Shown piece after piece: positions 260 to 31,706 of a stretch of 31,706 bases of DNA. Origin of the DNA: a virus (Duplodnaviria; Caudoviricetes); IMG/VR virus record IMGVR_UViG_3300035492_000045, positions 1 to 31,706 of that record; one strand, 5' to 3'. Position 1 is the first letter of the stretch, and every line of letters begins with the position of its first letter. Both the position numbers and the translations under genes were made by a program. The notes beneath the pieces were generated by a model. That model had not been told where the DNA came from. It searched no databases and saw nothing but the letters and a program-made list of their open reading frames with translations.

Positions 260-1336
260 TTAAAACTCTAGATTTTCTAAGTCTAAATCGTCTGTATCGT
301 CTTCGATTGCTCCGATGTTATAGTTGCTTAACTGTAACTCTTGAGCCGCCGTTTGTACGACACTGGTGTCGATATATTCCAGCATATAAGGTAAAGGCAA
401 TTCTTTAACAATCTGGAAGTCGAATTGAATACCAAACGCCTGATAGATTGGATATGCTAGGTAGTAGATATATTCCTTTAACAGGATTGCATTCAACCCT
501 ACAACCTGGCGACCTTCACTAAACAGGTAATCGGTCCAAGATGTTTCTTGCTCAATGATAGAATCAAGAATCTTCTTAATGTAAGGGCGCAACTCTTCGA
601 ATGCTTCCTTCCACTCAGGGTCTTTTAATAGGTTAACTAATACCGCATAGTCCATACGGGCATGAAGAATCTCATCACGACAAATCAACCCAACCAGTTT
701 ACAGATGCCTTGGTATAGGTCTGTTTCACCAATAGCAAATGTCACCGCAAAGCTACCCATGAAAGAGATTGCTTCAAGCCCCATTAAGGCGAACATGGTC
801 TTAATCAACTCGCGAATCATGACTTTTCTAGGTGTATCAACCGGCATATTGTAGATTGAATTAAACGTGTCTACGATCACTTCTGAGCGTTTCAATACCC
901 GAGTATTAACGTAGGTATCATGCAGCATTTGCGTTGGATTTACAAACGTCTGTTTAATGATATGTGAGTATGTACGGGCATGTATAACTTCAAACAGTGC
1001 CTGTGCTTGGAACATTCCCTCCGCTTCGCTATTGGTACAATGACGAATCAGAATAGACGTGATTGACTTAGCAGCGGCACTATCAACTAAATGCTGCCAA
1101 CTAATGGTTTTAACCATCAAGTCAGTAACTTCTTTAGGGGCATAGAGCATATCCATTTTGTCTTGGGTTAGATCTATTTCGAATTCTGACCAAATTTGAG
1201 ACATTTGAATATTATAAAGTTTCTCGAGCTCAGGATAATTCACGTGAACGGTGTCAAATAACCCCAAGTCATCGCCTAAGAAAATAGGATACTTTCCAGT
1301 TTCATGGCCTTTGTTGTTTGGATTGAATACACTCAT
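260..1336 (-). CDS. nrdB: Ribonucleotide reductase class Ia beta subunit
   Basis: Diiron/radical motifs WQHLVDS, EVIHARTY, LEAISF, RDEILH; adjacent to nrdA. Confidence 0.96.
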   Translation of the reverse strand: MSVFNPNNKGHETGKYPIFLGDDLGLFDTVHVNYPELEKLYNIQMSQIWSEFEIDLTQDKMDMLYAPKEVTDLMVKTISWQHLVDSAAAKSITSILIRHCTNSEAEGMFQAQALFEVIHARTYSHIIKQTFVNPTQMLHDTYVNTRVLKRSEVIVDTFNSIYNMPVDTPRKVMIRELIKTMFALMGLEAISFMGSFAVTFAIGETDLYQGICKLVGLICRDEILHARMDYAVLVNLLKDPEWKEAFEELRPYIKKILDSIIEQETSWTDYLFSEGRQVVGLNAILLKEYIYYLAYPIYQAFGIQFDFQIVKELPLPYMLEYIDTSVVQTAAQELQLSNYNIGAIEDDTDDLDLENLEF

Positions 1337-1370: not shown

Positions 1371-1886
1371 TTATAACTTACAACTTGAACAACCATCATC
1401 TTCCTGAATTTCTTCTGGAACGATTTGATCCTGTATGGTGCCACCATTAGAATCTTTGGTATTCAGGTAATATCTTGTTTTGTTGCCTAACTTGGCGTGA
1501 ATGACCCACTCTTTAATCAGTTGTGACATTGGAACTTTACCACCTTCAAAGCGTAAAGGCACAACATAGAAGTCACAGCTAATAGCCTGGTCAGTAAAGT
1601 CTTGAACGCGAGCATAATACTTGGACAATGTAATATTGTCAATATCCCATGCTGGTTTATGTTTGCCTTCAACAAACGATTGACAAATAAACTGAACCTT
1701 ACCTTTACGTGATGCCTTAGTAACAATCTTAGAACGCACTGGGTACAAACCATTAGGTGAACCTGATAATGAACTTGAGCTGTTATGACTAATACAACCA
1801 TTACTCAAAGGATAACATTCCGACTCTTTGACAGTAAAATCCCACGTATGTTCAAGCCCACACTCTTTAATAGATTTGATTCTCAT
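1371..1886 (-). CDS. nrdA: Split NrdA, C-terminal part: 35-aa C-intein fused to a 136-aa NrdA C-extein
   Basis: After ...SHN the protein reads SSSSLSGSPNGLYP (cf. E. coli TSSQISNATNGIEP), then DQAISCD, KTRYY (radical-transfer tyrosine pair) and terminal CSSCKL; AAGGAG RBS; ATGA overlap with the upstream endonuclease stop. Confidence 0.95.
   Translation of the reverse strand: MRIKSIKECGLEHTWDFTVKESECYPLSNGCISHNSSSSLSGSPNGLYPVRSKIVTKASRKGKVQFICQSFVEGKHKPAWDIDNITLSKYYARVQDFTDQAISCDFYVVPLRFEGGKVPMSQLIKEWVIHAKLGNKTRYYLNTKDSNGGTIQDQIVPEEIQEDDGCSSCKL
1782..1886 (-). mobile_element. C-terminal half of split intein (IntC, 35 aa)
   Basis: MRIKSIKECGLEHTWDFTVKESECYPLSNGCISHN|S: basic start, block F (TWDFTV), block G His-Asn, +1 Ser. 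Confidence 0.93.
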
Positions 1887-3109
1887 TTTGACTCCTTAAA
1901 TTTTTCTAAAAGTTCTTCTATCGTGATATCACAGTTCGCTCTTTTTGAGCAGTTTTCACTCGCTGGAATTATTCTTAGATTGTGAATTGATCCTATAACT
2001 TGAGGATTTATTCCATTTTTAAACCCCTCTCTGATAGAGTATATATGATCTAAGTGATAATCTCTACCTCTTAGATCGTAATTATCAAGTAATGATAAAT
2101 CGTTTAAATTTGTATAGAGCCAGACTAATTGATAATACTTGTCTCTTTCATTTAAAGATTCGTCATACTCTTGTATTTTATTTTTAATTATTTCAAGTGC
2201 GTATTTACAGAAATCTAAGGTAGGCATTGATTTAATGTCTAATAGCACTCTTAGTTCTGACCAATCTTTATTATAACAGTGTTTAGCAAATCTTAAAATA
2301 TTCGATGCGTCAATTAAATTAAAATGTTTCAATAAAGTCGAATAAGTTAATTTGTTTATTTTTCTTTTGTTGATATCTTGAATAATCAACCTAGCATCAT
2401 ATTCAGAGTATCCCCTTGATAAGTAATACTCTATATGTACACCCGCGTTCATTTTTTGGTGTTTTGATACCATTTCAATAGCCTGATCTTTACTATACCC
2501 TCTTTTCGTGTAATATCCAACGGTCCTTTTGCTTGTTATTGATTGTTCTTTTAAGAAACTTTCATATTCAGATACTGCCCTATCGTAATCGCCTTTATAT
2601 TTCTCTAAATAATAATCTATTCTATATCTCTTTGAACAGTCAAGTGCAAACTTTTGGTATACCTTTAACCCCTTTTCTGCCCCATGCCTCTTAATGAATT
2701 TTTCTTTTGATGTTGCTTTGTCTGATTTGAACTTTTCCACCTTAGCAACCGCCTCATCATAGGTTACGTTATCTCTTTCCATTACCCATTCGACGTCGTA
2801 GGGAGATTTTCTTTTATTCGATTGAGATTTTCTATAATCTTCATACCCGTCTGGATTATAGATTCGCATTTTGTTGTGGCTATTTGTCATACCTTTGGTT
2901 TTTAGAAATTTCTCTGTTGTAAAATGCCGATGGTACGTTTTTGCGTGTCTTAAATAACGACCTCTTTCTTTTGGATTAAATTTCAAATATTCAAAAAGTT
3001 CATAGTCAAAAGTCAAAGTAATATTGACATCATTGCCTTTTAACCATTCGTCCCATTTTTCGACTTTGTTATCGTTAAAAAGAATTTCCGTGAGTTGTTT
3101 CTTTTTCAT
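1883..3109 (-). CDS. Free-standing HNH-family homing endonuclease inserted between the split intein halves
   Basis: C-terminal YHLDHIYS...NLRIIPASENCSK HNH-like motif; repeated YY.KRGYS...A units; Lys-rich, AT-rich; position inside nrdA. Confidence 0.85.
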   Translation of the reverse strand: MKKKQLTEILFNDNKVEKWDEWLKGNDVNITLTFDYELFEYLKFNPKERGRYLRHAKTYHRHFTTEKFLKTKGMTNSHNKMRIYNPDGYEDYRKSQSNKRKSPYDVEWVMERDNVTYDEAVAKVEKFKSDKATSKEKFIKRHGAEKGLKVYQKFALDCSKRYRIDYYLEKYKGDYDRAVSEYESFLKEQSITSKRTVGYYTKRGYSKDQAIEMVSKHQKMNAGVHIEYYLSRGYSEYDARLIIQDINKRKINKLTYSTLLKHFNLIDASNILRFAKHCYNKDWSELRVLLDIKSMPTLDFCKYALEIIKNKIQEYDESLNERDKYYQLVWLYTNLNDLSLLDNYDLRGRDYHLDHIYSIREGFKNGINPQVIGSIHNLRIIPASENCSKRANCDITIEELLEKFKESK

Positions 3110-3114
3110 ATATG

Positions 3115-3172
3115 CCTCAAATGCCGTTAAAACATTTATTTATAAAAATATCAGTTTTAACGGCATATAAGG
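3115..3172 (-). promoter_or_regulatory. T4-type late promoter TATAAATA (3137-3144) in the loop of an RBS-sequestering hairpin
   Basis: Perfect 13-bp inverted repeat 3121-3133/3154-3166, extendable through the GAGG RBS (3115-3118). Confidence 0.85.
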
Positions 3173-3174
3173 TA

Positions 3175-3507
3175 TTACATAGAGACTATGTCATCCATTG
3201 GAGTTAAATCTTTAACAAAAATATACTCATTTTGACCATTTCTATTCACTAGAAGTCGATGATTAGCGGTAAATTTATAGGTATTCCCATCCTCAAACTC
3301 AATTTCGTATACTTTAGCCAGTCCGTTGTAGTAAACTTCATCACACTTACCTGTTGGAAATTCAATTTCAGGTATTTTAAACCGTTGCCCCTGCGCCATT
3401 GACGAATTTTCTATTCCGTCGACGTCTAGTTTAGATTCTATCAATATCTGACCTAGACTTTTCACGGTGCCATCCGCCAATAAAACTTCATTGGTTTTGA
3501 CTTGACA
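3175..3507 (-). mobile_element. N-terminal half of split intein (IntN, 110 aa)
   Basis: Cys1 block A CQVKTNEVLLADG, VYEIEFEDG, block B FTANHRLLV (TxxH), VKDL...D, then stop. Confidence 0.93.
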
Positions 3508-5289
3508 TTCAGTTGGCATGTGCGCGGAAAGCACCGAATGTTTCCGTTTATGTCCACGTAGGCTTTCCCAATCCAATTCTGTTACACTCTTATTGATACT
3601 GCTATCAATAGGCAGCCAGTCCTCTTTAATCCCTTCTACGTATGTCCTATCGCGTTTGGCTAGTTTTTGTGAAGCCTTCAATAAGTGGAAGTAATGGTGT
3701 TCAGCAATCTTTTGAACTAAATTTAATGACTCTTCTGAACCATCGTAGTCCATACCTTCATTATATAACCGTTCGGCTAATCCGGTAATACCAATACCTA
3801 CAGATCTACGTTGTTGAATCCAGTATGCCATTGAATCCGACATCATAGGAGCACGGTCGATCATAATGTCAACGGCTTCTAGGCCCAATTCGGCAATTTC
3901 GGCATACTCTTCGAACGTGATACGAGAAACGTTAAATGCACTTAATGAACAGAAGGCAGTTTCACCTACTGACTTTTCACCGTACAGGTCTTTCATATCA
4001 ACATAGGCTTTAGTCGGAAGAGCAATTTCAAGGCACAGGTTCGACTCTCTAATTAAATCTTTAAAAGGTGTATGAGTATTCATACGAGTCATATTGATAT
4101 CGTAAAAACGACCTGTCTCGGCACGAACGGTTAAGAATGTTTTCAACAACTCTAACGCATCAATCTTCTTATGAGGAACACCTTTTGCTAATAATTCTTG
4201 AACCTTAGCATTGTATTCTTCTGCAGATGCCTTATGAAAAACTCCATCGTACAATTCAGGTGCATGAAGCAAACTGAACAGGTACCATGGTTGTTTCTTA
4301 ACAACTGCTTCAACGAATGCATCATTATAACCAAAGCTATAATCCAGTTTGTCAATACGAGTCTCTAGGTCAATACGCTGAGATTTCCATAACAGAATTT
4401 TTTCAATCTCTGGATCAATACAAAGCACAGTCACAGTAGCATTACCGCCACGGGTGATTTGTGTCATCGTTTTAACTTCACGGTCAGTAGTCTTGAAAAT
4501 AGGCCATTTACCTAAATGCTTGACTCGACCACCCTTAACAGGATCGTCAATAGAACGAGTGGTGAACTCGATGCCAATGCCTGCCTTTTTAGATGTCATT
4601 TCATACGCAATATGGTTAGCAACACCAATTGATTTAACAGTATCACCACCGCTAATAACACAGCAAGAGATTGTGTCCCAGTCACCGTTGCGTAGGCCGT
4701 TTAATGCAGGTGTAGGTAGGTTGATTTTACCCAATACTAAGGCTCGTGCAAATTTCAATGCTTTGATGTTATCACCGAACAGGGCTAATGCAATACCCAT
4801 GAAACCTAAATGAGGAGTTTCTACCACATTGTCCTCAATTTTCATAGCATATTTGTCATTCCATTGCTTCACTTGCCAGTATTCCAAACGAGTTTCTTTA
4901 ATCTCGTTGTACCACTTTTCCCATCTTGGGTTATAGGCGGGAATTGAAGAACTATCCCATACACCGAAGTCTTCGTATGCTTCCATAATATCTTGGAATG
5001 ATGCGGAATCATCAAGTCCAAAGATATAGCGCATATTTTTACGAATGGTAGCAAACTCTAAACGGGAGGCAACACGGCTATACTCAAGAGACTTTTTATC
5101 CACACAGACATCAATCATTGTTTGGTGGATGTCTTCAGTCTTACATGGGTTGGTAAGACGTTTAAAAGTCTGTAATGCAATATCCGACCAATTACCACCT
5201 ACCTCTGACGCATACTTGGCCCACTTATTCAACTTGTCAGGGTTGAAAGGCTCGACCGTACCGTCACGTTTAATTACTTCTGTTATCAT
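3175..5289 (-). CDS. nrdA: Split NrdA, N-terminal part: 594-aa NrdA N-extein fused to a 110-aa N-intein
   Basis: ATP-cone start (VIKRDG), LPTP, ISCC, SNLCLEI (catalytic N-C-E), FCSLS, RRSVGIG; RNR similarity ends at SAHMPTE. Confidence 0.96.
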   Translation of the reverse strand: MITEVIKRDGTVEPFNPDKLNKWAKYASEVGGNWSDIALQTFKRLTNPCKTEDIHQTMIDVCVDKKSLEYSRVASRLEFATIRKNMRYIFGLDDSASFQDIMEAYEDFGVWDSSSIPAYNPRWEKWYNEIKETRLEYWQVKQWNDKYAMKIEDNVVETPHLGFMGIALALFGDNIKALKFARALVLGKINLPTPALNGLRNGDWDTISCCVISGGDTVKSIGVANHIAYEMTSKKAGIGIEFTTRSIDDPVKGGRVKHLGKWPIFKTTDREVKTMTQITRGGNATVTVLCIDPEIEKILLWKSQRIDLETRIDKLDYSFGYNDAFVEAVVKKQPWYLFSLLHAPELYDGVFHKASAEEYNAKVQELLAKGVPHKKIDALELLKTFLTVRAETGRFYDINMTRMNTHTPFKDLIRESNLCLEIALPTKAYVDMKDLYGEKSVGETAFCSLSAFNVSRITFEEYAEIAELGLEAVDIMIDRAPMMSDSMAYWIQQRRSVGIGITGLAERLYNEGMDYDGSEESLNLVQKIAEHHYFHLLKASQKLAKRDRTYVEGIKEDWLPIDSSINKSVTELDWESLRGHKRKHSVLSAHMPTECQVKTNEVLLADGTVKSLGQILIESKLDVDGIENSSMAQGQRFKIPEIEFPTGKCDEVYYNGLAKVYEIEFEDGNTYKFTANHRLLVNRNGQNEYIFVKDLTPMDDIVSM

Positions 5290-5304
5290 TTCTACCTCTA
5301 AGAA

Positions 5305-5523
5305 TTAGCCATTCAGTTGAGAATGGACACCGTTGACATATAATTGTGGAATACCACGGAAACCTTGCTCTAATAGAAACCCACGCGCTTCTTCATTTTC
5401 GCGAACGTTAACTTCGGTGAATTGAATACCCTTGGCAGTTAATGAATTCTTCAAGGTGGTACAATTAGGACAACCAGGGCCGCTGAAAACGACATAACCT
5501 TGATCTGGAACTTTATATGACAT
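5305..5523 (-). CDS. Glutaredoxin/NrdH-like redoxin
   Basis: CPNC motif, GFRGIPQL; start reassigned to ATG 5523 behind AAGGAG; upstream of nrdA. Confidence 0.9.
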   Translation of the reverse strand: MSYKVPDQGYVVFSGPGCPNCTTLKNSLTAKGIQFTEVNVRENEEARGFLLEQGFRGIPQLYVNGVHSQLNG

Positions 5524-5524
5524 T

Positions 5525-5743
5525 TTACGTCTCCTTAAGAGTTTTGAGTTTATTGTAAGCACACCGCAATACCTTACCTACATGATATTGTAGGTTAGCA
5601 TCGGCTATGATTGCATTGGCAGAATAGTCGGTACTAGGATTTAATTTATAACCCCAATCCGAGCAACATTTTTCAGTGAAAGAAATGACCGACTTAGAAT
5701 CGGTCATTTTAGAAATCAATCTACACGCTTGTGTTTCATTCAC
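5525..5743 (-). CDS. Hypothetical protein
   Basis: ORF fills the gap in the operon; likely GTG start at 5743 behind AAGGA. Confidence 0.6.
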   Translation of the reverse strand: MNETQACRLISKMTDSKSVISFTEKCCSDWGYKLNPSTDYSANAIIADANLQYHVGKVLRCAYNKLKTLKET

Positions 5744-5900
5744 AATCAATTTCCTTGTAATTGGGCCAAGTACCGTCTAGCACGTTTTGGCAGTAATGAC
5801 TCATTTCATTAACCTCATCTTGGTGAGTTAAGGTTAGACCAACGAATAACATTACGATTAATGCTACGACTGTTAAATTCTTTTTAGTTTCTGTTTTCAT
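5736..5900 (-). CDS. Small membrane-anchored protein, 54 aa (not in ORF track)
   Basis: MKTETKKNLTVVALIVMLFVGLTLTHQDEVNEMSHYCQNVLDGTWPNYKEIDCE; AAGGA RBS; promoter upstream. Confidence 0.8.
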   Translation of the reverse strand: MKTETKKNLTVVALIVMLFVGLTLTHQDEVNEMSHYCQNVLDGTWPNYKEIDCE

Positions 5901-5932
5901 GATATATTCCTTAGTCCAAGTTCACAGTTCTA

Positions 5933-5961
5933 AGTGTAACGGACTAGGCTATGGATGTCAA
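5933..5961 (-). promoter_or_regulatory. Sigma70-type early promoter for the grx-nrdA-nrdB operon
   Basis: TTGACA-17 nt-TACACT. Confidence 0.8.
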
Positions 5962-6275
5962 CGTTTGATTTCGCAGATTTTCTCTTTCAAGTCCTTGCGA
6001 TAGAAACATAAGGTTCTATTGGTTTCATTTATATAACGTCGAATGTCTTCCAAGAAGATTCTAAACTCAAGTGATTGGTCATAAGATAAACCAATTACCA
6101 CATCCTGATTTTCTTGAACCACAACCTTCCAATCAAAGGTATATGGTTTGACTGACGTAGGCCACTCTGGGTGGATTAGGGTTTCTTTTTGTGGTGGTAT
6201 TTCGATGTCGTTTGTTTTGCATCCTACCATCAATAGACAAGCAAGAGCAATCATAGACGCTTTTAATTTGTACAT
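5958..6275 (-). CDS. o-spanin (Rz1-like lipoprotein)
   Basis: Lipobox LMVG-C, Pro-rich segment, C-terminal LCFYRKDL...C; overlaps the i-spanin end. Confidence 0.85.
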   Translation of the reverse strand: MYKLKASMIALACLLMVGCKTNDIEIPPQKETLIHPEWPTSVKPYTFDWKVVVQENQDVVIGLSYDQSLEFRIFLEDIRRYINETNRTLCFYRKDLKEKICEIKR

Positions 6276-8518: not shown

Positions 8519-9700
8519 TCAAATTTTAGCTCTACAATTATCAAAATGATGTTTTTTTGCTACGTTTATTGAAATTAAGCGATTGCAATGTGGGCATAAG
8601 GTCTTTGGACGATTGGTAATGTAATTATCATATTTCTTCTCCTTTTTTGGGGCTTTTCCTAGTTTCCAATGATCTGGTTGTTTTCCTATTGTATATCTTC
8701 TATATACTAGCGTGTCGGGATCATGATAATAAGCAGATCCGTGACCTAAGACCCAACCATCGGGTATTTGAGTCTCATCATATATCCTTTTCCGTTCAAA
8801 CGTTAAAGGGTTATAACAAAATTTAGATTTGTTATATGTTGTCCATCCTTCAGGTTGTCTGTTTTCTGCGAACCTTTTAAATTTTTGTGTATTCGGGTTA
8901 TAATACCAAGAACCACAAAAATTTTCTAGTGAATTTTTTAGTCTACCCAAATTATGAGAAGGGGAAAGTTCGGAAGGGTAAACCATAAACTCATTTTTAC
9001 CGTCATTTACCCATATTCGATCTTTGGATTTATTTGTTGGGTTCCCTCTAACCCAACCTAAAGGTATATTTTCTGTTTCGCACATTTTGTATGTGTCAGG
9101 GTCTTCGGTTGAATGTACCCATACCATACCCAAAGACCCTCTGGTCTTTCTGTTTGGTCCTATTGATTTGTTGTACCCGTCCGGAATATCTTCCCACTCA
9201 TAGAATCTTTTCAATGTTTCTGTGTCGTTGTTCCAATAGTAGTGTTTTCCTGTAGATGCAGACACCTCATTTGGAAGAATGTCGTCTCTATGAGTTCTTC
9301 GAATTTTCTTGGTATCTAAATTTATAACAGTGATTATATTCATTTGATTTTCGGAGTTTATCTTTCTAGCTTTTTCAAAATCTCTTGAAGATATTAGATC
9401 TTTTTTACTATTACTTAATATTACATAAGCAGCTGATATTTTCTGGTTTTGTTTGCATGCACAATATAGAATTTTATGTGCTATGAAATGTTCTCTTGGT
9501 GTTAATACTGATTTGTTAGTGGGATATAAAGCGAATGACTTGTATTCAGGAAATATACTTTTTAGAAGTATATGGTGAGACTCCAGCCCTTTAGATTTTT
9601 TCTTTTTATTTAATTTGGTTACAAATGATATGTATCTATTTAGATAATGAAGATTAATTTCTGGAATTTTTGATTTATATTCTGCTACAAAATCCAACAT
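8519..9700 (-). CDS. Free-standing HNH homing endonuclease (Mob-like) downstream of rIIB
   Basis: N-terminal ESHHIL...N...LTPREHFIAHKIL; about six W/Y-Y-N...P.GW..G repeats; terminal CPHC...HHFDNC; ATG 9700 behind GGAG. Confidence 0.88.
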   Translation of the reverse strand: MLDFVAEYKSKIPEINLHYLNRYISFVTKLNKKKKSKGLESHHILLKSIFPEYKSFALYPTNKSVLTPREHFIAHKILYCACKQNQKISAAYVILSNSKKDLISSRDFEKARKINSENQMNIITVINLDTKKIRRTHRDDILPNEVSASTGKHYYWNNDTETLKRFYEWEDIPDGYNKSIGPNRKTRGSLGMVWVHSTEDPDTYKMCETENIPLGWVRGNPTNKSKDRIWVNDGKNEFMVYPSELSPSHNLGRLKNSLENFCGSWYYNPNTQKFKRFAENRQPEGWTTYNKSKFCYNPLTFERKRIYDETQIPDGWVLGHGSAYYHDPDTLVYRRYTIGKQPDHWKLGKAPKKEKKYDNYITNRPKTLCPHCNRLISINVAKKHHFDNCRAKI

Positions 9701-9743
9701 AACGTGCACTCCTATAAAAATTTTATTTATAAGAATGCACGTT
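9701..9743 (-). promoter_or_regulatory. Late promoter TATAAATA (9724-9731) within an 18-bp hairpin occluding the GGAG RBS
   Basis: AACGTGCATTCTTATAAA pairs with TTTATAGGAGTGCACGTT (two G-U pairs) immediately before the ATG. Confidence 0.87.
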
Positions 9744-9757
9744 TGTGCTTTAATCTA

Positions 9758-17265: not shown

Positions 17266-18897
17266 TTACTTCCAGAGGCGGTCTCGGATATCTTGGAAAT
17301 ATTCTACCTTCATAATATTACCATTCAAGAATACTGTCTTTAGCTCACCTTGCTTTTCTTGTTCTGGCGTCTGTTGATCATATAATACAAAGTCGTCGCC
17401 TTCTTTCTCGACCCGCAATAAACCTTTAGCAGATTTCTTAGTACCATCATCCGTTTTAGGGTCTTTTGACAATTCGTACCATTTGCCGTTTACCTTAGCT
17501 GCTGTTGCCTTAACCGCCATACCAGCAGAATCGCGAGTTAGGTACTGACAAGTATAACTACCTACGCCTAACACAACGTTGGTAGAGGCGAAGCCTTTAT
17601 GTGCTAGACGCTCAAAGATTTGTTTAGCTCGTTCTAGGGTAATAGAATCACCATAAATCAATCCAACCCGTTCATGTAATTGCTTATAACCTTGCTCAGT
17701 AGTAGTTCCACCAAAGATTTCCCATAGACATTGAACAGCACCTTTCACTTCTGCTTCAGACATTACTTGACAAGCATCTACACGACCATCTAGTTGTTGA
17801 TACAGATGATACCACTTTCCTTGGATAAAGACAACCTCGGGTAGTTTATTAATATCCAAATAATCGTATCTTTGATGTACGTATTCAACTGAATCCCAGT
17901 TAATACCATCATGAAAATATCCAGTTAAAATCTTAACTGGGCAACCTGAATCGGGTCGGAATACAACTTTCGCTAATCCTAACTCATTCGGTTGACGGTT
18001 TAGAATGTCGTCTTTCAACTCTGTTGCAAAATCAATAACAACACGGAAGAAGTCTAGGGTATCTGAAATTATAGAGACAATACCTGTTGGATAGTCTTGA
18101 GTAATCCATTTACGGTAAGTTTCAAGTTCACAATTAACCGCAATACCAGTAGAAGCTAGGCTATGTTCACTTGCTGGAACACTCGTGCCAATAAATTCGG
18201 ATGAAAGATCCGCATCGTAATATTTCTTAACATCAACAATGGCTGGAATATTATCTGTGCCACAACTACTCAGCAGAAACGCACCTCCACAAGCAGCAGC
18301 ATCTTCTGTATTTGACATTCCACGGTAGCTGAAATCGTGGATTTGGAATTCTGTACCTGCAATAGAACCAGTGGTTGTTAGTGCCCATGTATTAGCCAGT
18401 TTACGGTATTCGTAAATGATGGTTGCTACAGTCGTAGGCTTCCATAACTCTGCGGATAACCATGTTTCTAAGTAGTTGGTTAACCAAGCAAAACGCGGAT
18501 GGGTGTTCTGAATTGTAAAGAATGGAACCTTAGAATTAACACGACTACCTTCCGGCAGAGCTTTGATTTCAATAGGTAAATAGCCCAAATTATGCAGCTC
18601 AATGAAATGATCCATCGGTACAGAGTCTTTACCTAAGTAAGCATCAAATACCATCTTGGTTTCTGCGATTACATCATCGCGATAACGAGAAAAGAAATTC
18701 TTATTCCACTCCGTAACTAGCTTACGTAACACTCGCTGTAAACCGTACCATACAACCTTACCATCATGGTCTTCTTTGTTGACTGGTAGATATTTGTTAG
18801 AGCGAGGTGTCATATTGGAATAAATGACTTCCGTACCATCGGTCATAAAACCTTTGTGACTTAATTTGTAACTGTCTGTCTTGAATAATGGGTTCAT
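17266..18897 (-). CDS. nadV: Nicotinamide phosphoribosyltransferase-like protein (probable Namat of NARP1)
   Basis: KTDSYKLSH, HDFSYRG, SVPASEHS, VFRPDSG, LIYGDSIT, GVGSY, KDPKTDDGTKKSAKG. Confidence 0.93.
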   Translation of the reverse strand: MNPLFKTDSYKLSHKGFMTDGTEVIYSNMTPRSNKYLPVNKEDHDGKVVWYGLQRVLRKLVTEWNKNFFSRYRDDVIAETKMVFDAYLGKDSVPMDHFIELHNLGYLPIEIKALPEGSRVNSKVPFFTIQNTHPRFAWLTNYLETWLSAELWKPTTVATIIYEYRKLANTWALTTTGSIAGTEFQIHDFSYRGMSNTEDAAACGGAFLLSSCGTDNIPAIVDVKKYYDADLSSEFIGTSVPASEHSLASTGIAVNCELETYRKWITQDYPTGIVSIISDTLDFFRVVIDFATELKDDILNRQPNELGLAKVVFRPDSGCPVKILTGYFHDGINWDSVEYVHQRYDYLDINKLPEVVFIQGKWYHLYQQLDGRVDACQVMSEAEVKGAVQCLWEIFGGTTTEQGYKQLHERVGLIYGDSITLERAKQIFERLAHKGFASTNVVLGVGSYTCQYLTRDSAGMAVKATAAKVNGKWYELSKDPKTDDGTKKSAKGLLRVEKEGDDFVLYDQQTPEQEKQGELKTVFLNGNIMKVEYFQDIRDRLWK

Positions 18898-18911
18898 ATT
18901 GTTTCTCCTAA

Positions 18912-19799
18912 TTAATATTCAGCGTAAACATAACCATCGTTGAAGTTTTCAACTTCTTCGGCAGTAATATACTTGCCTGCGATTTGATAGTAAAGCAAAT
19001 TATCAATAACGCCTAGGAAAGGATCTAAACGCTTCGATGCAATAAGATGTGTTACATATAAGTCCACCTGCGTTGCACCTAACTGGCGTAGTCGTAGGGC
19101 TAATGGAATGAACGTACCGCCACCATCCAATATATCATCCGCGATTAAAACCTTTTTATCAGTTAAATCTTCGGCAGTGTCTAGGTTTGTTTCTAAAATT
19201 CTACCGTTCGACGGATCGCGTTTCTTTGTTGCGGTGATTATGGGTATATCTAGTAGTTCGGCAATCTTGCTTGCCTTTTCTACCGCGCCATTATCTGGAG
19301 CAATCACATAGTCATATTGTTGTATATCAATGAACATATCAAAGAAACAACTTGCTTGAGATTTCACCGAAATTTCGCCTCCTTCAACCAACAGATGTTC
19401 ATACATCAATTGACGCACCTTGTCATTCAATACATGGGGATCAGTCAAGAACACTGTATCAAACTTAAACTGAATACCAGTCAAGAAACTTCTTAAAGGG
19501 TGAGGATTGCCTTCTTCGAAAATGCGCTCTGCTCTGGCATAAGGTAGGTACTTGAAATTAATACCACTACGGAAATCATGAGTACGAGTAATTTTACCTG
19601 CGATCATCATATTCACCATAGCATCACCTAGCATATTAATGTAGTGTGCTACCATAGAACAAGGTAAACTAGGATCAATGACAATCACTTGAGTAAATAC
19701 TTTTGACTCGTAAGGTGGAATTTTACAAGTAATAGCACCGTCACTAAACTTGTGCCATTTTACGTTAATTATTTCACCATTGAATATCAGTCTGATCAT
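18912..19799 (-). CDS. prs: Ribose-phosphate pyrophosphokinase-like protein (probable Adps of NARP1)
   Basis: FSDG, YLPYARAER, DPH, IAPDNGA, K.RD, LIADDILDGGGTF, LYVTH. Confidence 0.9.
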   Translation of the reverse strand: MIRLIFNGEIINVKWHKFSDGAITCKIPPYESKVFTQVIVIDPSLPCSMVAHYINMLGDAMVNMMIAGKITRTHDFRSGINFKYLPYARAERIFEEGNPHPLRSFLTGIQFKFDTVFLTDPHVLNDKVRQLMYEHLLVEGGEISVKSQASCFFDMFIDIQQYDYVIAPDNGAVEKASKIAELLDIPIITATKKRDPSNGRILETNLDTAEDLTDKKVLIADDILDGGGTFIPLALRLRQLGATQVDLYVTHLIASKRLDPFLGVIDNLLYYQIAGKYITAEEVENFNDGYVYAEY

Positions 19800-25889: not shown

Positions 25890-25906
25890 AAGAGTTTCCT
25901 TTGTTC

Positions 25907-25914
25907 ACTAAATA
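25907..25914 (+). promoter_or_regulatory. Late promoter variant ACTAAATA for the tail gene
   Basis: Octamer about 60 nt upstream of the ATG at 25976. Confidence 0.6.
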
Positions 25915-25930
25915 TGAGTTATATAGTCAC

Positions 25931-25959
25931 AGTTTATACAGAGTTAGAGTGATTGTCAA
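25931..25959 (-). promoter_or_regulatory. Sigma70-type early promoter for DNA ligase
   Basis: TTGACA-17 nt-TAAACT. Confidence 0.8.
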
Positions 25960-25975
25960 CTCATAAGGAAAATCA

Positions 25976-28900
25976 ATGCAAATCGGTGATATTCTAAACA
26001 AAACTACCACTCCAGTTGAAGTTGTTGGCTTTTTTGAGCAAGGATTCGTTTTTACCGGTGAAGATCAAGTAGGTATTGACAATGCGGGTTCGGCTTGGGG
26101 TTGGAATGGTACTTTTCCTTACACGGTACAACCAAACACGGATCCCGAGTCTAGTGAAAACTTTATCTTCGTTGCAATAGATGAGTTCAAAGACGATCTA
26201 TCAGTTGAAGATAGCAGTATCCTAATTGCAGGTGTTCTTGCAAGAGACCTAGTTCAAAGATTAAAGGATATCGAGGCAGGTGGCGGGCCAATTGGCGATA
26301 TCAATCAAGAGCTAGAAGAGCTTAGGGACATACTCGAACAGGTCAATTTAGATTTAGCGAATAACACCATTGTCCTGGGCCAACTGAACGATGATTTGGA
26401 TGTTCTCAATAACCAAACCTTACCTCAAGTTCAACTTGATTTGGCCGAAAACAGACAGATTATAGATCAGCTAAATGACGATCTTGCTTATCTTAACAAC
26501 ACGACTTTAGTTCAGGTCAATAACCAATTACTTCAGTTGAATACCGATATTCAAAATATCACTGATGTCGCTTCCGACTTAGACCAAGAGCTACAAGATT
26601 TAGTCGTCTCTACGGGTAACGCAATAGATGGTTTAAGAAATGATACTGAAGATGCTATACAACAACTCAGTGACAATACTACTACTTCTATTGGAACAAT
26701 TAACACAAGCCTAACCAATTTAGATAATAAGATAGAAGGTTATAAAACCGATTTTGATAATGAAGTCATAGTCATTAGAGGCGAAATTGATGACCGTTTA
26801 AGCGAAACTGAAACAGAACTTAACCGTGTACGAGACTCATTAAAACTCGAAATTAATACTGAGATGCTAAATCGAAAAGAAAGTGACAAACTTCTTTTTG
26901 AAACTACTGCACTTGCTGTTCAACTACGTCAGAATCAATCCAACATCACTAATGCTTTATTTGAAGTTGATCCGGCAACAGGTACTATTCGTAACCTTGC
27001 TTACGCTTATACAGACAGTCAATTCACTCAGGCTGGATTATTAATTGATGGTGTTAATGCTGAAATTCAATTACAGGCTCAACGAGTCACATCAACAGAA
27101 GATAGAATCACCAATGCAGAATCTGAGTTACTATTACAAGCTGGTCAGATTGGTTTACGTGCTACGTATACAGAAGTAAATCAGGCGATAGCTGGTGCCA
27201 TTGATGCGGTACTACCTGCTTACTCTTTTGGTTTCTTTAACTCAAATGAAGGTTGGACTGCCGTTAATGGAACACTTACTCCAGCAACCTCTAAGATTAA
27301 TTTAACTTGGGGTGATATTGAAAACCAAAGTCTATCTTATGTCGCAGACGAAAACCCAATTATCTCAATCTCTATTGAGCGCACTGGTGGTACTGGCTGG
27401 GTCGGTGATTTAATTGTTACATTTGATGATAACTCAACTCAAACTTACACTGGAGTTATACAAGACATAGCCTCTGGAACTACATTTGTACGAGTACTAA
27501 ACCTAGATGGCGAATCTACTTACACAGGCAACGTAACAGGTATCCGCTTGGTTTTAGGTACGTCAGTAGCTGACACATTTACAATCAACTCAATCACTAT
27601 CGGTAAGCCATCTGCTGCTCTTACAGAGTTAGAAGGTATTACTGCACAGATTAACCAAGTTGGTATTGATTTAAACGCATTAGAAGCCAGTTTAACAAGT
27701 TATGTTACTGTAGATACTTATACAGCAGAAGCTGTCACTCGTAGCAATGTAGAAACAGTTTTAGATGGTATTGATAGTTATGCTGCTATTACAGCTACAC
27801 TGCAAGAGTTCGATACAAACGATACCTTAACTAAAGCAAACTACGCTGCCCAATGGGTAGATGCTGCCACTGCAAATATCCGTTCAGAAGTCCAAGCGTA
27901 CAAAACCGAAGAAATTGATCCAGAATTAAATACGATTAGAGGTGACTTAACTACTGCATCTTCTTTAATTGATGCGGCTAATGGTAAAATTTCTGACCAG
28001 TTAATTTCAATTTCAGGTATTCAATCTGACTCTAAAGACTTATCAAAAATTGCATTACAGGCAGAATACCAGTTATATCTGTCAAAGAAAAATCAAATCG
28101 AACAAGGTGTAGCTATTGCTATTGCTAAAAACGAGTTGAACACAATTTCTAATGAGCAGTTAGCTTTAGCAGAAGAAATCCTTTTACTAGAAGCCAAGTT
28201 TGGTACAGATGTAGGACAGGTCAATGCAACTTTGTTTGAGCTGAATCAAACTATTGCTAATGAAACCGAGGCTCGTGTTCAAGCGTTACAATCATTAGAG
28301 ACCGATTTCAATCAAGCTATTACCGCTTCCGCAACATCAATTCTTGATGTTGTTAGTAATACAGAACAATCTTTATCACAACAGATATTAAATTTACAAA
28401 CTGAGTTTGATGGTGAGATCACTGCTACGGTCAATCAGTTATTACAAGCCATAAGCGATGAAGAACAGGCACGAATTACACAATACAATGAATTACAAAC
28501 ATCATTTGGCGATGAAATTAATGCTGTCAGAACAGATCTAACTCAACTTGTTTCCGATGAGTCATCTGCTAGAGCTTCTGTTATATCAAATTTAGAAACA
28601 AGTATCGGCAATACATACGCCACCAAAACTGAGGTAACTAATGCTATATCATCGGAAGAACAATCTCGTATTGATGCATTAGAAACATTAGAAACAAGTT
28701 TCAATAACACTGTTAACGCTACACGAACAGAGTTGACTGAACTTGTATCAGATGAGTCAAGTGCAAGGGCATCAGAAATTTCTGCACTATCAACGTCAAT
28801 TGGTAATACTTACGCTACGAAAACAGAAGTAACAAATGCTATATCATCAGAAGAACAAGCTCGTATAGATGCTATTGAAAATTTAACCACCAATCTAGAA

Positions 28901-31706
28901 GATAACTACGCCACATTAAACGAATTGAATACCGTTTCTAGCGATATCGAAGGAACGAAAGTTTTAGCACAAACGTCAGCTATATCAATTTCGAGTATAA
29001 AGAAAGCAACAGAAAACACAGGACTTGAGCAACTACTTGAAAGTTACCGTACCTACCTAACAGAAAAAAATCAACTTGAATTAGGTGTTTCGATTGCTAG
29101 AGCAGAAACAAATTTATCTACCCTTACAAACGAACAATTAGCACTTGCACAAGAGGTGACTGTACTAGAAGCAAAACTTGGTACTGCTGAAGGTACATTC
29201 ACAGCGGAAGTGTCAAGATTAGATAGAGCAATTACAGATCCTGATGGAGCAGTAGCATCCTCTATTTTAGAAGCTACTACGGTATTAGAGGGGGATACAA
29301 GAGTTCCTGTAGCAACTATTGCCATTGATGCAAAAAGCACAGCAAATGATGTGCAGGAAGCCTTAGCAACATTTTCTACTGAGATTGCAGGCGAAGGTGG
29401 AAGTCTTAGTCAAGCCAGCGTGATATTAAGCACAGCGGTAGATGAATTAGGCGAAGTTGGTAGTAGGGCCTTTTTAGGGACTTCTGTATTACAACCAGGT
29501 CAAACCAAATATACCATTACTGGTTTGACAGTTGATAGTGTTGAACGTGGAATTAGATTCCAAGGTGATTTGTTTGAATTAGTTAATGGTGCTGGTTTAA
29601 GAAGATTATACTGGCAAACTGATACTAATGAATGGCAAATTGATGGTAATGTTTTAGTTTCAGGATCGGTGAGAGGTAATGCTTTAGTTGCTAATACAAT
29701 CACAGGTGATAAAATAGCTGCTAATACTATTAATGCAGATAAAATAGTGGCTAATAGTATAGGCGTAGACCAATTAGCTGCTAACTCTGTAAATGCGTCT
29801 AAGATTGTTGCTGAGTCTATTACTGGCGATAAAATTGCTGCAAATTCAATAAGTGCTGATAAAATTATTGCAAACTCCATTGGCGCAGATAAATTAGCAG
29901 CTAATTCAGTTAATGCAGACAAAATCGTATCTAATGCAGTTACTGCTGATAAAATAGCAGCAAATGCTGTATCCGCAGATAAAATTTTAGCGAATGCAAT
30001 TACAGCAGATAAGATAGATGCTAATGCGTTAAATGGTAAAACTATTACAGGTTCTTTAATTAGAACTGCTGCATCAGGAACAAGGGTTGAAATTGGAAAT
30101 GCTACTTTACCTATTTGGTATGGTTCAGGTGCAGTAACCACGGCAAATGGTTTATTCTATGTTGATAATAACGGTAATGTAATTGCCAAAAATACATTTA
30201 AAGTGAATGTAGATGGAAATGATCTGTTTTACTATGATGAAGTAAATAACACCTTAACAATTAAAGCGAAATTAATTTTAAATGATAATTTTGCAGTTGA
30301 TGGTGAATCTGACATTCGTGCATTAGACGGCAAAACCACAGAAGTTAGATACTCTGCAAGTTCAACTACACCTACCGGAACTAACCCGTCTGGTTGGACT
30401 ATAGCACCACCAAGCACAACGAATCCTATTTACGCTTCTAGAGTAACCAGATTAAGTAATGGTGCAATCGAAGGGGCTTGGTCTGCTCCTGTAAGATGGA
30501 ATGGGGTTGCGGGTAATAATGGTTTAAATAACACTACTGTCTACTTATACAGACGTAGCGCATCAGTACCAGCTCTACCAACTACAACAAGTACATACAC
30601 ATTCTCAACTGGTGTATTGACAGGGTTTAATAACTCTTGGTCAACTTCTGTTCCATCTGGTACAGACCCGCTATATGTAACTGTAGCTACAGCAAGCTCA
30701 AGTACAAATACCGATACTATTGAGGCAAACGAGTGGTCTAGTCCTGTTATTCTTTCACAAAATGGGGCAGCAGGTGCGGCTGGTTTAAATAGTGCTACAG
30801 TGTTTTTATATCGCAGGAGTGCATCAGTACCGGCATTACCGAGTGCGACAATAACGTATACTTTTGCAACTGGTGTAGCAACTGGGATTAACAATAGTTG
30901 GTCACAAACCATCCCGACAGGTACTGACCCTATTTATATTACCACCGCAACTGCTGCTTCTACTTCTGCCACAGATACTATTACGGCAGGGGAATGGGCG
31001 ACAGCTAGATTGTTAGCTAAAGATGGTGCAGACGGAGCTAACGCATCCACACTAAATGTAGCATTGACATCTCAATCTATTGTGTATCGAAAAGATAATA
31101 CAAGAAGTACGAGTGCAATTACTGTAAACACCGTTGGAACTAATTTACCCGCAGGAGGTGTATATGAATATGAGTTACAAGCATGGAGAGCAAATAACAC
31201 TTATTCACTAAACCGTGTAACAAGTGATGGGTCTCAGACTAACGAAAGATGGACAGTAAATGGTTCTAGTGCGACACTCGATGTAAGTAGTAGTTATTCT
31301 GTTTTTAATCCAAATAACGAATTTATTAATTACAGAATCAGAGTCAGATACTTAGTTGGTGGAAGTCCAGTAGTAGAAGATACAGTTTCTATTGCTAAAA
31401 TTTATGACGGTAGTGAGGCTATTACTGTTGTACTGAGCAATGAGGCACATACGCTACCAGCTAATAACTCAGGTGCTGTGTCTAGTATGGTTGGTTCTGG
31501 TACAACAATTAAAGTTTATCAAGGGGCTAACTTGCTAACGTTTAGGGGTACTGGTTCAAGTGGTAGTGTTTACCCGACACAAAACTCAAGCTATCAAATA
31601 AACCGCACATATAGTACCAATATGCGCAATGCTGGTACTATGTCAGGTGATGGAACAACTACTGCCACACAGCCTGATTACGGTGATGTTGTAGGTGATG
31701 GTAGTG
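25976..31706 (+). CDS. Very large tail fibre/receptor-binding protein, partial (>1,910 aa; not in ORF track)
   Basis: AAGGA RBS, ATG CAA ATC GGT...; frame stays open to the window end; tailspike-anchor-like N-terminus (GFFEQGFVF...WGWNGTFPYTVQPNTDP), long coiled coils, ANxIxADKI repeats, Thr/Ser-rich beta modules with short Gly-X-Y linkers. Confidence 0.88.
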   Translation, partial: MQIGDILNKTTTPVEVVGFFEQGFVFTGEDQVGIDNAGSAWGWNGTFPYTVQPNTDPESSENFIFVAIDEFKDDLSVEDSSILIAGVLARDLVQRLKDIEAGGGPIGDINQELEELRDILEQVNLDLANNTIVLGQLNDDLDVLNNQTLPQVQLDLAENRQIIDQLNDDLAYLNNTTLVQVNNQLLQLNTDIQNITDVASDLDQELQDLVVSTGNAIDGLRNDTEDAIQQLSDNTTTSIGTINTSLTNLDNKIEGYKTDFDNEVIVIRGEIDDRLSETETELNRVRDSLKLEINTEMLNRKESDKLLFETTALAVQLRQNQSNITNALFEVDPATGTIRNLAYAYTDSQFTQAGLLIDGVNAEIQLQAQRVTSTEDRITNAESELLLQAGQIGLRATYTEVNQAIAGAIDAVLPAYSFGFFNSNEGWTAVNGTLTPATSKINLTWGDIENQSLSYVADENPIISISIERTGGTGWVGDLIVTFDDNSTQTYTGVIQDIASGTTFVRVLNLDGESTYTGNVTGIRLVLGTSVADTFTINSITIGKPSAALTELEGITAQINQVGIDLNALEASLTSYVTVDTYTAEAVTRSNVETVLDGIDSYAAITATLQEFDTNDTLTKANYAAQWVDAATANIRSEVQAYKTEEIDPELNTIRGDLTTASSLIDAANGKISDQLISISGIQSDSKDLSKIALQAEYQLYLSKKNQIEQGVAIAIAKNELNTISNEQLALAEEILLLEAKFGTDVGQVNATLFELNQTIANETEARVQALQSLETDFNQAITASATSILDVVSNTEQSLSQQILNLQTEFDGEITATVNQLLQAISDEEQARITQYNELQTSFGDEINAVRTDLTQLVSDESSARASVISNLETSIGNTYATKTEVTNAISSEEQSRIDALETLETSFNNTVNATRTELTELVSDESSARASEISALSTSIGNTYATKTEVTNAISSEEQARIDAIENLTTNLEDNYATLNELNTVSSDIEGTKVLAQTSAISISSIKKATENTGLEQLLESYRTYLTEKNQLELGVSIARAETNLSTLTNEQLALAQEVTVLEAKLGTAEGTFTAEVSRLDRAITDPDGAVASSILEATTVLEGDTRVPVATIAIDAKSTANDVQEALATFSTEIAGEGGSLSQASVILSTAVDELGEVGSRAFLGTSVLQPGQTKYTITGLTVDSVERGIRFQGDLFELVNGAGLRRLYWQTDTNEWQIDGNVLVSGSVRGNALVANTITGDKIAANTINADKIVANSIGVDQLAANSVNASKIVAESITGDKIAANSISADKIIANSIGADKLAANSVNADKIVSNAVTADKIAANAVSADKILANAITADKIDANALNGKTITGSLIRTAASGTRVEIGNATLPIWYGSGAVTTANGLFYVDNNGNVIAKNTFKVNVDGNDLFYYDEVNNTLTIKAKLILNDNFAVDGESDIRALDGKTTEVRYSASSTTPTGTNPSGWTIAPPSTTNPIYASRVTRLSNGAIEGAWSAPVRWNGVAGNNGLNNTTVYLYRRSASVPALPTTTSTYTFSTGVLTGFNNSWSTSVPSGTDPLYVTVATASSSTNTDTIEANEWSSPVILSQNGAAGAAGLNSATVFLYRRSASVPALPSATITYTFATGVATGINNSWSQTIPTGTDPIYITTATAASTSATDTITAGEWATARLLAKDGADGANASTLNVALTSQSIVYRKDNTRSTSAITVNTVGTNLPAGGVYEYELQAWRANNTYSLNRVTSDGSQTNERWTVNGSSATLDVSSSYSVFNPNNEFINYRIRVRYLVGGSPVVEDTVSIAKIYDGSEAITVVLSNEAHTLPANNSGAVSSMVGSGTTIKVYQGANLLTFRGTGSSGSVYPTQNSSYQINRTYSTNMRNAGTMSGDGTTTATQPDYGDVVGDGS
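28530..28885 (+). repeat. Two 65-aa (195-nt period) coding repeats
   Basis: LVSDESSARAS...TSIGNTYATKTEVTNAISSEEQ.RIDA twice (GATGAGTC at 28556 and 28751). Confidence 0.85.
29690..30019 (+). repeat. Eleven tandem 10-aa (30-nt) coding repeats, consensus ANSITADKIA
   Basis: GCTAAT...GATAAAAT recurring every 30 nt. Confidence 0.92.
30521..31040 (+). repeat. Two 87-aa (261-nt period) coding repeats
   Basis: GLN..TV.LYRRSASVPALP....TYTF.TGV.TG.NNSWS...P.GTDP.Y...EW starting at 30521 and 30782. Confidence 0.9.

Follow-up and report, generated by a model that had tools for sequence, protein, structure and literature searches.

In a 31,706-nucleotide (nt) stretch of viral DNA (positions 1 to 31,706 of IMG/VR record IMGVR_UViG_3300035492_000045; this whole stretch is called the window below), the nrdA gene of a ribonucleotide reductase (RNR) is broken into two genes, and the break carries the two halves of an intein, with a third gene between them. 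The two proteins are very probably joined by protein trans-splicing into a normal subunit of 730 amino acids (aa). The break falls in the substrate-phosphate loop of the enzyme. The locus is not a new kind of element, as the fractured architecture, nrdA included, has been in print since 2009 (PMC2677866). The initial annotation of the window had suggested a possible new orthogonal split intein, and this needs to be narrowed: the architecture is published for nrdA, and the same split is present in cultured phages and in many metagenomic contigs, but the insertion site, the intein family in its split form and the nuclease family appear undescribed. Our literature search returned no account of a split intein at the phosphate loop or of the nuclease family; subscription papers and InBase lay largely outside its scope, and an allele name may already exist. 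The word "intein" is absent from the main text of PMC2853527, and the available text of PMC5259590 holds nothing on a split intein at this loop.

Two nrdA genes and a split intein

All genes of the locus are on the minus strand, in the order glutaredoxin-like gene, NrdA(1-594) fused to the N-intein (IntN), hairpin, open reading frame (ORF) of 408 aa, C-intein (IntC) fused to the end of NrdA, and nrdB (Table 1). The ORF at 3175-5289 encodes 704 aa; its Pfam match to the RNR barrel ends at residue 594, in SAHMPTE, and is followed by the 110 aa, with Cys1 and a TxxH motif, that had been annotated as an N-intein and that run to the stop. The ORF at 1371-1886 encodes 171 aa: a 35-aa IntC ending in His-Asn, then Ser and the remaining part of NrdA. 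Both pieces were recovered at the positions where they had been annotated. Joined, the exteins give 594 + 136 = 730 aa, the normal size that had been claimed for the product: this is the length of the intact NrdA of a syntenic sister contig (L008), which aligns without gap across the break and is 82% identical to the N-extein and 93% (L008 residues 595-730) to the C-extein. All the features of a class Ia RNR alpha subunit are present (ATP cone, three active-site Cys, Asn/Glu, Tyr-Tyr, CxxC, adjacent nrdB). Their division between the genes is as first described, C210, N417/C419/E421 and C447 being encoded by the first and Y139/Y140 and the terminal CxxC by the second.

The position of the break was determined by aligning L008 to E. 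coli R1, and corresponds to E623|T624 of that protein (E594 in the window). The break lies between Ser622 and Ser625, two residues that form hydrogen bonds with the phosphates of the substrate (PMC4728125). A Hint domain left unspliced in this loop would in all likelihood keep the substrate from binding, an argument for splicing being obligatory. The NrdA inteins reported by Dassa in 2009 insert directly before the thiyl Cys (PMC2677866), a region (NLCLE) that is uninterrupted at residues 417-421 of the N-half; the allele described here is therefore different. Thus the comparison with known RNR intein alleles, which had been proposed as a check, places the break at the phosphate loop and not at the thiyl-Cys sites of NrdA-1 to -7 and NrdJ-1. 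Besides L008, a further intein-free junction is suggested by a loose end at position 1768 that is present in two contigs from run X3. One intein-free homologue (L011) has Ala instead of Ser/Thr at +1, and the intein could not splice from such an allele. In four close relatives of NrdA (L009, L012, L013 and L014), the ORF stops at the N-L-C motif (near residue 418-419) and resumes 250-730 nt further on, without an intein tail; these breaks are probably group I introns.

The splicing residues are complete: C1, T80 and H83 in IntN, H34-N35 in IntC, and Ser+1. Among 11 aligned relatives, Cys1 and His83 never vary, and conservation of Thr80 and Asn82 is at least 90%. An AlphaFold model, covering IntN only and built on a 62-sequence alignment (mean confidence score, pLDDT, 89.5), was compared with 48,161 chains. 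The top 33 rows were all Hint-type domains, the best with a Z of 9.4, a root-mean-square deviation of 2.6 Å and 102 aligned residues, and the first unrelated row had a Z of 3.1. The Hint fold, which had been put forward as something to verify, is thus recognized in the model of IntN although profile scores stay under their cut-offs (see below). Identity in the structural alignments was 16% to NrdJ-1, 15% to gp41-1 and 18% to Npu DnaE, and no near-identical solved intein was found among these chains; the intein family as a whole is 12-22% identical to solved inteins. A phmmer search of IntN against the PDB gave nothing below an E value of 0.09, and neither IntN nor IntC had a close relative in word-indexed protein searches. 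Locally, IntC is 43-55% identical to the IntC of phages KP13-7, F336 and WX1.

The locus is not evidently an assembly artefact. In run X1, a single contig covers positions 1515-6000 with zero differences (X1 may itself be the source of the window), and in run X2, which belongs to another study of the same year and habitat label and possibly to one campaign with X1, identical contigs span the extein/IntN junction and the nuclease/IntC overlap. Nor is it a chance arrangement, given that intein motifs stand exactly at both exits from NrdA homology, that the IntN model matches solved inteins, and that dozens of RNR loci share an intein at this loop. The spacer of 65 bases between IntN and the middle ORF is the sole noncoding DNA of the insert. 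The middle ORF and both NrdA-half ORFs are intact; the stop of the former overlaps the IntC start by 4 nt (ATGA), and IntC has its own AAGGAG at 1892-1897. The cassette is richer in AT than the exons, the exteins having a GC fraction of 0.41 and 0.39 versus the lower value of the middle gene.

Table 1. Positions in the window of the fractured nrdA locus, its neighbours and a second endonuclease gene
Feature	Positions	Strand	Description
Glutaredoxin-like gene	5305..5523	-	directly upstream of nrdA-N; syntenic 72-aa gene in L008
NrdA N-extein, residues 1-594	3508..5289	-	ATP cone, all-alpha domain, barrel; ends HMPTE
N-intein (IntN), 110 aa and stop	3175..3507	-	Cys1, block B T80-A-N-H83, net charge -7
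RNA hairpin 5' of the nuclease ORF	3115..3172	-	holds TATAAATA at 3137-3144; pairs the GAGG ribosome site at 3115-3118
Putative free-standing HNH-type homing endonuclease, 408 aa	1883..3109	-	GC 0.31; motif and weak profile matches
C-intein (IntC), 35 aa	1782..1886	-	basic first strand, block F W-D, terminal His-Asn
NrdA C-extein, 136 aa	1371..1781	-	Ser+1, Tyr-Tyr pair, C-terminal CxxC
nrdB, small subunit	260..1336	-	terminator-like stem 3' at 225-247
Second free-standing homing-endonuclease gene	8519-9745	-	396 aa, phrog_655 and phrog_12434, after rIIB

Relatives of the intein and known fractured genes

The IntN region was used in a phmmer search against 1.84 billion representatives, which yielded 189 proteins at E <= 0.001. 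Among the best 150, the window's own protein included, 145 fit the IntN profile: 118 stop at most 25 residues after IntN, some of them perhaps because the contig does; of the others, 22 are contiguous and 5 belong to other types. Loci were then counted in viral contigs and GenBank phages. The 77 intein rows reduce to 58 non-duplicates, which comprise 38 split loci with IntC, 10 ending after IntN without a parsed IntC (several show one by eye), 9 contiguous inteins and 1 truncated. Labelled by motif rules, the gaps of the 38 split loci hold a nuclease of the window's family in 13 cases (the window included, and two rows being near-duplicates), a Vsr/EDxHD-like one in 5, another HNH-like one in 5, a GIY-YIG in 1 and an unassigned ORF in 3; the other 11 contain no full gene. 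Two gaps of this last group (L087 and L104), 150-161 nt long, keep the apparent 3' end of a nuclease gene, and these loci are apparent intermediates of endonuclease loss. The RNRs that bear the intein include class I and, judged by the flanking motif, class II enzymes, and insertion falls in the same loop throughout, at positions 0 to +2. A tree of 47 complete inteins contains several supported groupings in which split forms are sister to contiguous ones (L100/L101, L103/L109, L089/L092, and WX1 plus CP21 with CP220 plus CPt10). The window intein has a long branch and joins none of the well-supported clades, so that no donor can be named; its nearest complete relative is 51% identical.

Cultured phages carry the same arrangement. 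A tblastn search of IntN against 50,697 phage records matched 24 of them. Klebsiella phage phiKp_21 (LC768485) has the exact two-piece layout of the window at the same site, its pieces being annotated as nrdA and hypothetical proteins. In phiKp_21 and KP13-7 (OP617745) the site reads MPGE|TSS, IntC is 35 aa long and a related nuclease (28% over 339 aa) lies between the halves; they differ from the window in that IntN is only ~25% identical, and the intein is unannotated. KP13-7 differs further by breaks of nrdA upstream. Its gene (L001 140-5670) is in four pieces, being interrupted near residue 292 by a small HNH-like ORF, at the thiyl Cys by a split intein with a GIY-YIG-like gene, and in the phosphate loop by the split intein with its nuclease.

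Campylobacter phages have the same intein family in the same loop, split in WX1 and CP21, and contiguous in CP220, CPt10, F336 and PC14. Insertion is at the window's position in F336, and one residue along (after the T624 equivalent) in CP220, CPt10, WX1 and CP21, where near-identical inteins are contiguous in the first two and split in the last two. The WX1 gap holds a related nuclease gene; the CP21 record has frameshifts in the nuclease and the C-half. Two different split inteins divide WX1 nrdA (L002 643-5800) into three pieces. In CPt10 (L005 644-4711), what is annotated as a "pseudogene" proves to be a split intein at the thiyl-Cys site, whose halves are separated by two ORFs that do not look like nucleases, and the second intein is contiguous. 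The CP220 intein is annotated and is discussed in PMC3653736, whose available text does not describe the split form of the Campylobacter nrdA intein and reads the Campylobacter phage nrdA genes as degenerating. Two inteins in an IBB_35 gene are mentioned in PMC3322345.

The fractured genes of Dassa 2009 (gp41-1, IMPDH-1, NrdJ-1, NrdA-1 to -7; PMC2677866) resemble the locus in having three ORFs on one strand, the canonical split position, a TATAAATA hairpin before the endonuclease, an overlap of the endonuclease stop with the IntC start, a phage origin and an RNR host. The initial annotation had recognised this architecture, and the ORF order, the splicing residues, the Hint fold, the collinear exteins, the hairpin and the overlap all bear it out. 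The differences lie in the site, in the endonuclease and in dimensions. In that paper the NrdA inteins immediately precede the thiyl Cys (Cys+1) and the NrdJ site is one residue on, whereas here it is in the phosphate loop, 175 residues later, with Ser+1. The endonucleases reported there are GIY-YIG or Vsr-like, fracturing of inteins by HNH enzymes being only suggested (PMC2677866). The spacer measures 65 nt here and 27-51 nt there, the overlap 4 nt against 6-69, and IntN 110 aa against 88-105; inteins in the available part of its supplement were compared by eye. The nrdA-a/mobE/nrdA-b locus of Aeromonas phage Aeh1 also has an HNH gene between two nrdA genes, an overlap with the downstream gene (PMC3045599), and control by a hairpin (cited in PMC2677866). 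However, it has no intein, its halves assemble non-covalently via tails, and its break is between C431 and the second redox Cys (PMC3045599). These tails lack splicing residues, unlike the window, which has the full splicing set and a Hint fold.

If the reading is right, the cultured carriers phiKp_21, KP13-7 and WX1 make both in vivo trans-splicing of an RNR and the gene-breaking model testable: one RNR loop displays all the states of the 2009 scheme, namely empty, contiguous and split, the split form holding one of several nuclease types, the remnant of a nuclease or no nuclease at all. It also bears on annotation, since the pieces go under "hypothetical" or "pseudogene" in the records of these phages and were taken for decay in one survey; such nrdA pieces more likely represent working enzymes. 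Naturally split inteins form a small, heavily used toolkit. Several from fractured genes serve as tools (PMC7090010), and the CP21 PolB split intein has already been mined (PMC12707363). With a family only 12-22% identical to solved inteins, the window pair is a fair candidate for an orthogonal tool. We would go further only tentatively: the phosphate loop may host a large undescribed family of mostly split mini-inteins that has changed repeatedly from split to contiguous or back, together with a modular homing endonuclease (an N-terminal domain recognising the DNA that encodes this loop, and a nuclease domain swapped between HNH-like and Vsr-like), and the window pair, whose closest complete relative found is 51% identical, may be efficient with Ser+1 and orthogonal to gp41-1, NrdJ-1 and Npu DnaE.

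The middle gene, its control and a model of the locus

The gene between the halves had been annotated as a 408-aa HNH ORF. The ORF is there; the HNH label rests on a motif and on weak profile matches, without a curated family match. The protein has an N-terminal helical-repeat region (about residues 90-260) and a C-terminal domain of the form YHLDH..N..N..K. H352, D354, H355, N377, N386 and K389 of this domain are invariant in 9 of 9 and 48 of 48 aligned domains, and we take them to be the HNH pattern. Weak matches to the PHROG endonuclease VII profile were found in 10 of the 48 members (best E 1.4e-5), and an Atlas search gave an HNH row at 0.83 and, for the N-terminal region, a row at 0.76, both leads only. 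For the nuclease domain, 78 viral loci were retrieved, 72 of which have no RNR or intein match nearby. The N-terminal region is also present in 3 of the 78, all inside the RNR phosphate-loop intein, and within this same intein it is joined to Vsr-like or other nuclease domains in five loci (L029, L031, L100, L103 and L110). The N-terminal region is probably the target-recognition module. A relative of the nuclease domain also lies in another nrdA break, near residue 300 (L115 2204-4304), flanked by seemingly long intein-like tails at a different site.

The spacer folds into a hairpin of -26.3 kcal/mol (z -7.0; 0 of 200 shuffles were equally stable). It contains TATAAATA, the T4-type late-promoter motif, and pairs the ribosome site of the nuclease ORF. 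Hairpins with a late-promoter motif have been described for fractured loci and Aeh1 (PMC2677866). All three TATAAATA matches of the window are on the coding strand, 15-28 bases 5' of an ORF; two precede endonuclease genes, and both of these sit in hairpins covering the ribosome site. A transcript beginning after the motif has negligible folding (-0.2 kcal/mol), so late transcription would release translation of the nuclease. No comparably strong hairpin was seen at the IntN ends of KP13-7 and WX1, and other repeats in the locus resemble chance matches.

Class 1 inteins splice by formation of a thioester at Cys1, attack by the +1 nucleophile and cyclisation of the terminal Asn. In the window, the acidic IntN would capture the basic first strand of IntC, Cys1 would form a thioester with Glu594, and Ser+1 would attack it; the terminal Asn would then cyclise, and the Glu-Ser bond of the substrate-phosphate loop would be restored. 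On early operon transcripts the hairpin would silence the nuclease while nrdA-C would be translated from its own ribosome site, and a late promoter within the hairpin would free nuclease translation. The nuclease would cut the intein-free nrdA of co-infecting phages, leading to the copying of the whole cassette with flanking exon DNA.

Several points weigh against this model. The intein halves score under the curated cut-offs (19.8 versus 35.8 bits for Pfam, 17.5 versus 24.5 for TIGR01445 of NCBIfam), and Foldseek gave no match to IntN at E <= 0.001, its top rows being nonetheless inteins. IntC lacks the block F histidine. The net charge of IntN is -7, but that of IntC is -1 overall in spite of its basic first strand, so that charge complementarity is local only. 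The middle ORF has no significant match in Pfam or the PDB, and no profile similarity to T4 MobE or I-TevIII. The three TATAAATA matches in the window equal the chance expectation (mean 3.3), which leaves only their positions as informative. Finally, the mosaic of identities described below is silent on which phage received foreign DNA.

Two NrdA pieces can also work together without splicing, as in Aeh1 (PMC3045599), and intein halves must bind before they splice in any case; the halves here might simply clasp the NrdA pieces non-covalently, like the tails of Aeh1 NrdA-a and NrdA-b, splicing being dispensable. We consider this very unlikely: all the splicing residues are kept and are conserved in relatives, the clasp would leave a 145-residue Hint domain in the substrate-phosphate loop, and contiguous versions of the same intein exist, which would have to splice. 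Slightly less probable still is a decayed locus in a phage that relies on the host RNR, which is what has been suggested for Campylobacter phage nrdA, called degenerating in PMC3653736, and what the frameshifts in the CP21 record would fit. In the window the three ORFs are intact, as are the catalytic residues, nrdB and the glutaredoxin; nucleotide versus protein identity to L008 points to purifying selection, and the "pseudogene" of CPt10 that PMC3653736 cites turns out to be a split intein too, at the thiyl Cys. The least credible alternative is rejoining at the RNA level, by an intron or a ribosomal bypass that removes the nuclease region and leaves a contiguous intein or an intact NrdA. 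Group I introns with HNH ORFs are indeed frequent in phage nrd genes (PMC3653736), but Rfam at its gathering threshold gives zero matches in the whole window, the 65 noncoding bases between IntN and the nuclease form the promoter hairpin, the C-half is equipped with a start codon and a ribosome site, and eleven relatives stay split with no full gene in the gap. A group I or II intron around the endonuclease ORF was accordingly rejected.

Trans-splicing may also be real while the middle ORF is not the homing endonuclease for this site, but a passenger, a dead nuclease or an enzyme that cuts elsewhere. The missing curated family match and the 72 of 78 nuclease-domain loci away from any RNR or intein match would agree with this, which we regard as unlikely though well within reason. 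The invariant D-H..N..N pattern and the late-promoter hairpin fit an active homing nuclease, and the three loci that share the N-terminal region as well all lie in this intein. A homing role for the middle ORF is thus probable on present sequence evidence.

Signs of DNA exchange and other features of the window

Identity to L008 is uneven along NrdA. At the protein level it is about 89-97% over residues 1-320, 59-76% over residues 321-594, and 88-100% over the C-extein (90-100% over the last 56 residues). Over residues 421-500 the window is 59% identical to L008, no nearer than to six distant homologues (59-65%). At the DNA level, the value is 73% for the sequence upstream of the cassette and 91.6% for that downstream of it. 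This mosaic fits a nuclease gene at an exchange boundary with co-transfer of exon DNA, a theme of PMC10448857. Over residues 1-320 nucleotide identity is 78-84%, lower than protein identity, which points to purifying selection.

Between positions 200 and 1544, runs X1 and X2 contain a second strain with many differing positions in nrdB, and in X1 nrdB has a greater summed depth than the cassette; both facts suggest that related phages share this segment.

At 31.7 kb, the window covers part of the genome of an uncultured T4-like phage; its genes include rIIA/rIIB, gp32 and those for a helicase loader and for RNA and DNA ligases. The two runs in which at least half of its words are present are both labelled tar pit metagenome. 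For gp32, identity to the protein of Pseudomonas phage pf16 is 65%; pf16 is reported to have a late sigma factor and to carry TATAAATA upstream of structural genes at three sites (PMC5587285). A sigma70-like site lies at 5933-5961, further upstream of the glutaredoxin-like gene; promoter and terminator counts in the window are at the level of shuffles, and a tRNA scan of the window found none. Some 3 kb (25890-29070) are without an ORF of at least 80 aa, a tRNA or an Rfam match. The second homing-endonuclease gene (Table 1), to which the middle ORF of nrdA has no match, has a hairpin of its own that buries the ribosome site and the GTG start, with TATAAATA at 9724-9731. It is missing from the genes of L008, where rIIB directly precedes the next gene. 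A pair of genes for NAD salvage, a nicotinamide phosphoribosyltransferase and a phosphoribosyltransferase-domain gene, occupies 17266-19799 on the minus strand.

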